This document shows positions 27,415 to 27,855 of a stretch of 49,610 bases of DNA, piece by piece. Each line of letters opens with the position of its first letter. The first letter of the stretch is position 1. A program made the position numbers and the translations under genes. The notes under the pieces were generated by a model. The model saw only the letters and a list, made by a program, of their open reading frames with translations, ran no database searches and was not told where the DNA came from. This DNA comes from Escherichia coli (lineage in GTDB: Bacteria > Pseudomonadota > Gammaproteobacteria > Enterobacterales > Enterobacteriaceae): the NCBI RefSeq assembly GCF_003334305.1, contig NZ_QOWS01000028.1; one strand, given 5' to 3'.

Positions 27415-27855
27415 CATTATTCTGTCTTATTAATTGAAAATTATTTCTCGCTTTATTATCCATGCGGCAATAATGTTTTGTGTTCAGATAACCTGCTAAA
27501 TAATTAAGAGCGTGAGAACATCTATTTTTTTTATCACGCAAAACAAGTCTGTATTAATTATGTTCGCTTGATGAGCAAACACCGTTCTATCTGTTGCTTT
27601 TGCAATCTTAATCGTTAAAACTACCAACGAATTTATATAGTTGCGTTGTGAAATGTTGTTAATTTTTTGTTTATTGAAATTTCGTAAAAATAGCCAGCCA
27701 GACATCAAATAGGGGTTATTCTTATAAATTTCACCTGTTTTCTATCAATGATGTCGTTTTCTTAAGAATGGAGGAAATTATTAAAGAAGATAAAGCATAA
27801 AACTATTTCTCCCAGTTACGAATTTTTTAACATTGTTTTGTCACTTGCGTTATTA
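27415..27855. promoter_or_regulatory. Strongly AT-rich region upstream of sslE
   Basis: About 440 bp of AT-rich non-coding DNA with many A/T tracts directly upstream of the sslE start. Confidence 0.5.

Follow-up and report, generated by a model that had tools for sequence, protein, structure and literature searches.

The AT-rich tract between glcA and sslE in a segment of the Escherichia coli chromosome is the known sslE/yghJ control region

At promoters of the Shigella virF class, AT-rich curved DNA flanks the promoter, repression by H-NS is relieved near 37 °C and Fis serves as an antagonist or activator; at virF itself a role for a temperature-sensitive DNA bend has been demonstrated. virF is also listed among genes with H-NS motifs (Lang et al. 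2007, PMC2094087). The gspA/gspC region of T2SS-alpha in K-12 is likewise an AT-rich promoter region of a T2SS operon, reported to be silenced by H-NS (Francetic et al. 2000), and has also been classed as a promoter island with H-NS (PMC3661553); it is a different locus of unrelated sequence with divergent promoters. The closest system is that of sslE (yghJ) itself. In enterotoxigenic strain H10407, sslE and 13 downstream T2SS genes are reported to lie on one mRNA, and the operon to be repressed by H-NS and StpA and expressed more strongly at 37 °C than at 22 °C, with both proteins binding the promoter region and blocking open-complex formation (Yang et al. 2007, J Bacteriol 189:142, as relayed by Tan et al. 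2016, PMC5012682). Deletion of hns at 22 °C raised sslE mRNA 3.5-fold in UTI89 and 2.2-fold in EC958, and its effect at 37 °C was strain-dependent, being strong in EC958 (7.2-fold) and weak in UTI89 (1.7-fold) (Tan et al. 2016, PMC5012682). The same study found that Fis and H-NS are opposed in their effects on sslE and described one Fis-consensus site centred at -138 (herein F1) and three overlapping sites between -41 and -68, beside the -35 element (herein F2); mutagenesis in UTI89 showed that F2 is needed for activation by Fis, and mutation of F1 was without effect on reporter activity (PMC5012682). In K-12, the yghJ/glcA spacer (3117080, 374 bp) is one of 78 "promoter islands" and is bound by H-NS in all of the ChIP studies considered (Grainger, Kahramanoglou, Oshima) (Panyukov & Ozoline 2013, PMC3661553), and yghJ is named among genes with multiple matches to the H-NS motif (Lang et al. 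2007, PMC2094087).

The DNA analysed here (herein the window) is a 49,610-nucleotide stretch of an E. coli chromosome in which the genes run in the order glcDEFGB, glcA, a 485-bp spacer, sslE, pppA, gspS2 (yghG), gspC–gspL and yghD (gspM). Positions 7300-44495 (~37 kb) are 99.99% identical to E. coli H15, whose RefSeq annotation was used for the genes. The T2SS-beta cluster of the window is complete, unlike that of K-12, which is without most of the downstream T2SS-beta genes. Of 5426 complete E. coli genomes, 4316 have a match to a 601-bp query taken around the AT-rich tract, and in every case it sits between glcA and sslE. The spacer is at least 80% present in 4078 of the 5426, and about a quarter of the genomes are without most of it. 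The sslE control region is hence variably present within the species. On the window, the locus is composed of the following features:

25688..27370, + strand: glcA (glycolate permease), the upstream gene, with its stop codon at 27368-27370 (open reading frame list and H15 annotation)
27380..27406, + strand: intrinsic-terminator hairpin of glcA, a 10-bp stem and 7-nt loop followed by the interrupted T-run TTCATTTACATT (terminator scan)
27407..27561, no strand: upstream AT-rich regulatory DNA, 26-36% GC, with Fis site F1 (GC profile and Fis-rule scan)
27562..27587, no strand: Fis-binding region F2, three overlapping 15-mers that obey the Fis rule, -67 to -42 (Fis-rule scan and UTI89 mapping)
27594..27622, + strand: putative weak sigma-70 core promoter, -35 TTGCTT at 27594-27599 and -10 TAAAAC(T) at 27616-27622 (position relative to the mapped start)
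27612..27621, + strand: best match to the H-NS high-affinity motif, TCGTTAAAAC, 9.5 of 13.4 bits, overlapping the putative -10 (position weight matrix)
27629, + strand: transcription start, transferred from the UTI89 5'RACE map; the base here is G
27629..27855, + strand: 5' untranslated leader of sslE, 227 nt, 72% A+U (start-site mapping)
27660..27779, no strand: segment of highest predicted intrinsic DNA curvature in the region, +32 to +151 (wedge model)
27768..27800, + strand: 10-codon upstream open reading frame (uORF), MEEIIKEDKA and stop, with an internal GGAGG; intact in 10/10 alleles, of doubtful significance
27856..32421, + strand: sslE (yghJ), lipoprotein mucinase, with ATG at 27856, signal peptide MNKKFKYKKS... 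and lipobox LAGC (annotation and sequence)
32561..44325, + strand: pppA-gspS2(yghG)-gspCDEFGHIJKL-yghD(gspM), the T2SS-beta genes (H15 annotation), reportedly co-transcribed with sslE in ETEC (Yang 2007, as cited in PMC5012682)

The yghJ promoter of H10407 occupies the same locus in the same gene order, and its spacer is 96.7% identical (469/485) to the window allele; most of the 16 differences lie in the early leader or a T-run (27525-27532), and between F2 and the transcription start only the +1 base differs. The spacer of UTI89, the uropathogenic strain of Tan et al. (PMC5012682), is 94.2% identical and preserves F1, F2, the -35 and -10 elements and the 227-nt length of the leader; it differs from the window by two fewer T in the upstream T-run, one substitution in F2 (CACCG to CTCCG) and several changes in the leader; apart from +1, the F2-to-start stretch differs by a single base. 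The K-12 island 3117080_374 yghJ/glcA (PMC3661553) is the orthologous spacer, 97% identical, and its high density of promoter-like sites is reproduced in the window. This degree of spacer identity with H10407 and UTI89, together with the near-identity between F2 and the start, justifies well the transfer of the published mechanism to the window allele. The tract is the already characterised sslE/yghJ control region, the known system itself and not merely one that resembles it, and the silencing of the H-NS type or temperature-sensitive promoter that a sequence-only reading of this DNA had proposed for sslE and the T2SS has been published at this same locus (PMC5012682, PMC3661553).

The promoter was placed on the window solely by transferring published coordinates. 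In UTI89, one start position fits both of them (the F1 centre at -138 and F2 at -41 to -68), namely the A in ctaccaac[A]aattt, and this corresponds to window position 27629, where the window allele has G and the nine other alleles compared, as well as H10407, have A. The reporter primers of Tan et al. (2016, PMC5012682) map to 27371-27661, which puts promoter activity within the first 290 bp of the spacer, and the transferred start falls inside this promoter-active fragment. We infer the exact -35 and -10 hexamers from their distance to the mapped start; both are invariant in five alleles, and the region between them varies at 27607-27608 in one allele. A strict sigma-70 consensus scan found no promoter in the spacer, because these hexamers match the consensus poorly, and a promoter this weak is also consistent with one that depends on an activator. 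The whole tract had earlier been taken for a 440-bp leader; the AT-rich tract is real, but the transcribed leader comprises only the last 227 nt or so of the spacer, and the first ~258 bp consist of the terminator, AT-rich DNA, the Fis sites and the weak core promoter. The glcA terminator named in the same reading is indeed present as a 10-bp hairpin, with a folding energy of -16.7 kcal/mol (RNAfold) and a stem that is invariant in five diverse alleles.

Fis sites were sought with an inclusion and exclusion rule reportedly due to Shao et al. in 2008, under which each 15-mer must have G at -7, C at +7, R at -3 and Y at +3, with no A at -4 and no T at +4; the rule was validated here by its reproduction of the published positions. 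Upstream of the start, the scan returned only one site at 27482-27496 (F1) and the three overlapping sites at 27562-27587 (F2). The centre of F1, 27489, is -138 in the numbering of UTI89, where the T-run is two T shorter. Fis-rule 15-mers thus stand just upstream of the putative -35 in the geometry published for F1 and F2, and they are conserved in the alleles compared. Nucleotide diversity was computed on ten alleles picked for their diversity, and five diverse alleles were aligned. F2 has a single variable position among the five aligned alleles, and F2 and the core promoter together have pi=0.027, compared with 0.042 at third codon positions of glcA. The core promoter is therefore more conserved than neutral sites, which argues that specific regulation has been under selection.

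The composition of the tract is extreme within the window. Its GC content (27415-27855) is 0.295 against 0.523 for the entire window, which puts it ~4.4 SD under the average 441-bp window (0.523, SD 0.052), and only 0.18% of such windows are equally low; the marked AT-richness relative to surrounding DNA that had been noted by eye is thus borne out by windowed GC (29.5% vs 52.3%), as are both of the A/T-rich strings quoted with it (27419-27453 and 27526-27562). The spacer between glcA and sslE (27371-27855, 485 bp) has a GC content of 0.301, or ~70% AT against 48% for the window, and its AT content exceeds the 61.4% mean of ChIP-bound H-NS segments (Lang et al. 2007, PMC2094087), with AT standing well above background over a few hundred bp, as at H-NS/StpA-silenced promoters. 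In 50-bp steps, GC is 0.22-0.38 across 27350-27899 and then rises to 0.56 at 27900, such that the low-GC tract extends over ~27400-27900 and takes in ~45 nt at the start of sslE, where the lysine-rich N-region of its signal peptide is encoded. Despite sequence turnover, spacer GC is 30-33% in all ten alleles. Among the ten spacers of at least 60 bp in the annotated part of the window, seven have 39-58% GC and three have 30% or less (glcA|sslE, 16411-16780 and the 65-bp pppA|gspS2 spacer), so the tract is unusual but not unique. The repeated A/T tracts remarked on earlier are present (13 homopolymer tracts of at least four in the spacer vs 4.8 per 485 bp window-wide) but largely follow from composition, mononucleotide shuffles of the region giving 9.8 ± 2.7 (P=0.16).

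The same holds for the H-NS motif. With a position weight matrix built from the 11 sites in Table 1 of Lang et al. (2007), whose high-affinity motif is tCGATAAATT, the spacer has 19 top-percentile matches against 4.8 expected from the window rate (~4-fold), an enrichment that is not significant once composition is controlled (19 vs 14.4 ± 3.6 in spacer shuffles, P=0.12). The best match lies over the putative -10, a position that would fit a block at open-complex formation, and this motif-like site may act as an H-NS nucleation site. Intrinsic curvature, which the sequence-only reading had named as a property to predict, is modelled to peak just downstream of the start: the segment from +32 to +151 has an end-to-end/contour ratio of 0.80 (mean 0.95), placing it in the top 0.1% and third in curvature among all 120-bp segments of the window. 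These wedge-model values are approximate and no more than indicative. Curvature near the promoter, as at H-NS-silenced promoters, is a model prediction here, and sslE differs from virF in this respect, its predicted bend lying downstream of the start. The curved segment may nonetheless take part in silencing.

We consider it highly probable that the AT-rich tract serves the sslE-pppA-gspS2-gspC..M operon as its regulatory region and 5' leader, and that this operon is silenced by H-NS/StpA and activated by Fis. Its layout would run from the glcA terminator through ~220 bp of AT-rich DNA with Fis sites and a weak sigma-70 promoter to the AT-rich leader of 227 nt. H-NS, with StpA, would bind the AT-rich, predicted-curved DNA that spans and surrounds the promoter, and the bound proteins would keep RNA polymerase from open-complex formation. 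Repression would be tight at ambient temperature and lifted at 37 °C, and Fis, bound at -67 to -42 just upstream of the -35, would counteract silencing and activate the promoter in cells growing at 37 °C. Others have demonstrated binding, the block at the open complex, the dependence on temperature and on F2, and the start itself on alleles 94-97% identical to that of the window, and in-vivo H-NS occupancy in K-12. Repression by H-NS at 37 °C varies by strain, so its strength in the window allele would not be transferable from any one strain. The locus does not fit the classical case of xenogeneic silencing, in which the genes of a horizontally acquired island are themselves AT-rich, because sslE (51.6% GC) and the gsp genes (44-59%) are not AT-rich; AT-richness is confined to the regulatory spacer, and silencing would be local to the promoter.

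SslE, a lipoprotein that degrades mucin, is an E. coli vaccine candidate, and T2SS-beta also secretes heat-labile toxin in ETEC; on/off control of the operon therefore matters for colonisation and antigen expression. Experiments at the same locus have already resolved this control, and the window adds no new biology to it. Our analysis establishes how the tract is composed, which locus it belongs to, that promoter and Fis sites are conserved and where the published coordinates fall on the window. What it leaves of value is a map that places the published elements on the window allele by coordinate, in which most of the long leader is seen to lie outside the published reporter.

It is rather unlikely that H-NS acts at this promoter island mainly to suppress pervasive or antisense transcription, with the regulation of sslE as a by-product. 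The K-12 copy of the spacer is, as noted above, an H-NS-bound member of the 78 islands (PMC3661553), and a relaxed promoter scan of both strands finds 26 promoter-like sites in the spacer against 6.2 per 485 bp window-wide (~4-fold), which places it in the top 1% of windows. This density does not go beyond composition, however, since shuffles give 28 ± 5.5 sites where 23 are observed, and what the locus has is one defined start, with a Fis-dependent promoter that drives a 14-gene operon and a core promoter more conserved than neutral sites. Moreover, such a role of H-NS is compatible with the silenced and Fis-activated control region that we favour and does not exclude it.

A second alternative, which we regard as improbable, places the main control in the 227-nt leader RNA, which might act as a thermometer or riboswitch-like element, be targeted by an sRNA or contain an attenuator that depends on NusA/Rho. 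In its favour are the length of the leader and the lack of a Shine-Dalgarno sequence for sslE: none was detected before the ATG (27836-27858; anti-SD duplex energy +1.2 kcal/mol). This energy is the second weakest among 21 gene starts tested in the window, the weakest being that of pppA (+2.0), and the start context of sslE is A/U-rich. The transposon screen of Tan et al. found nusA and typA, which would fit effects after initiation, and their plasmid reporter ended at ~+33, leaving most of the leader outside (PMC5012682). Diversity is also unevenly distributed along the transcript. The early leader (27629-27752) is hypervariable, with pi=0.124 (~0.10-0.17 over the first ~120 nt after the start, 27621-27745), whereas the late leader has pi 0.04-0.05 and the first 75 nt of sslE 0.011, and 27746-27930 is nearly invariant; from the 3' half of the leader through the signal-peptide codons, pi is 0.01-0.05, much lower than in the flanking stretches (0.10-0.12). 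The remainder of sslE has pi 0.099, and its third positions 0.19 (vs 0.04 in glcA), the mature part being highly diverse. Against control by the leader, an Rfam search of the spacer returned no family at E<=1, the minimum free energy of the folded leader is not significant (z-score -1.26; 23/200 shuffles fold as well), and the leader has no C-rich, G-poor stretch of the rut type (C 10-18%, G 14-18%); an RNA thermometer or riboswitch was rejected as a candidate on the Rfam and folding results. In the published work (PMC5012682), furthermore, deletion of hns alone de-represses at 22 °C and the block is assigned to open-complex formation.

A regulatory role of the Shine-Dalgarno-less leader in its own right, alongside silencing at the promoter, is likewise doubtful, and our analyses do not support an independent function. 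What suggests it are the conserved 3' half and signal-peptide codons and the always-intact uORF with its GGAGG; any role of the leader beyond the end of the plasmid reporter would have been missed by that construct. Were there such a role, the curved segment could conceivably bridge to the upstream AT-rich DNA via H-NS and so trap or pause RNA polymerase, or a NusA/Rho- or TypA-sensitive step might be involved. One natural disruption of the leader was seen: in the complete genome UTME-10, an IS1 is inserted (L011 3346-4262) at approximately window position 27715, ~85 nt past the start.

It is very unlikely that the composition reflects an unannotated small gene, either a minus-strand open reading frame of 70 codons (27708-27496) or the 10-codon uORF. 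The spacer does contain an 81-codon stop-free run, somewhat longer than in shuffles (P=0.048), and the uORF, which falls within a part of the leader that varies less than the sequence around it, is intact in 10/10 alleles with its GGAGG; but the minus-strand frame has a premature stop in two of the ten alleles and an end that shifts frame with the length of the T-run, and the uORF shows three non-synonymous and no synonymous changes and has no Shine-Dalgarno sequence (dG -1.4). Neither was accepted as a gene, open frame, coding-type substitutions and ribosome-binding site not being found together in the spacer, and no RefSeq record among the 40 matches listed annotates a feature there. Generic intergenic AT-richness with no silencing role is scarcely credible. 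E. coli spacers are generally AT-richer than genes and others in the window reach 26-30% GC, but this one lies 10-14 points under typical window spacers (39-58%), keeps its composition across all alleles despite turnover and has published H-NS binding and regulation; the published hns-mutant data conflict with such a reading.

The spacer at 16411-16780 (370 bp, 29.7% GC), between the divergent fatty-acyl-AMP-ligase gene and yghO, is the lowest-GC spot of the window and the densest in both H-NS-motif-like (24) and promoter-like (35) matches; on these sequence properties it is probably another target of the H-NS type. A third low-GC spot lies at ~3051-3500 (spacer approx. 3115-3405; minimum 31.5% GC) and is, by homology to H10407, the gss/pitB spacer upstream of pitB. 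Within the operon, the 65-bp pppA|gspS2 spacer (33371-33435) has 26% GC, and the sslE|pppA spacer (32422-32560) is GC-rich (57.6%) with REP-like palindromes (gccggataaggcgttcacgccgcatccggca and ...gcccgcatccggca), which point to an element of the REP/BIME type inside the operon.

A tRNA gene search of the whole window found none. Identity to H15 ends at 44495, inside tRNA-Phe of H15, and 44474-44495 (tggtgccggactcggaatcgaa) is a 3' remnant of tRNA-Phe. In 44474-49610, beyond this remnant, lies the end of a pheV-type genomic island, ~91% identical to the island end of H10407, which carries DUF4942, DUF957, DUF5983, CbtA/CbeA toxin-antitoxin, JAB/RadC-like, antirestriction and DUF932 genes. At 12326-16410, a minus-strand cluster encodes a serine palmitoyltransferase, an acyl carrier protein, an NAD-dependent epimerase/dehydratase and the fatty-acyl-AMP ligase; it adjoins extra lptF/lptG-like genes and forms a lipid-biosynthesis set that is unusual for E. 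coli.
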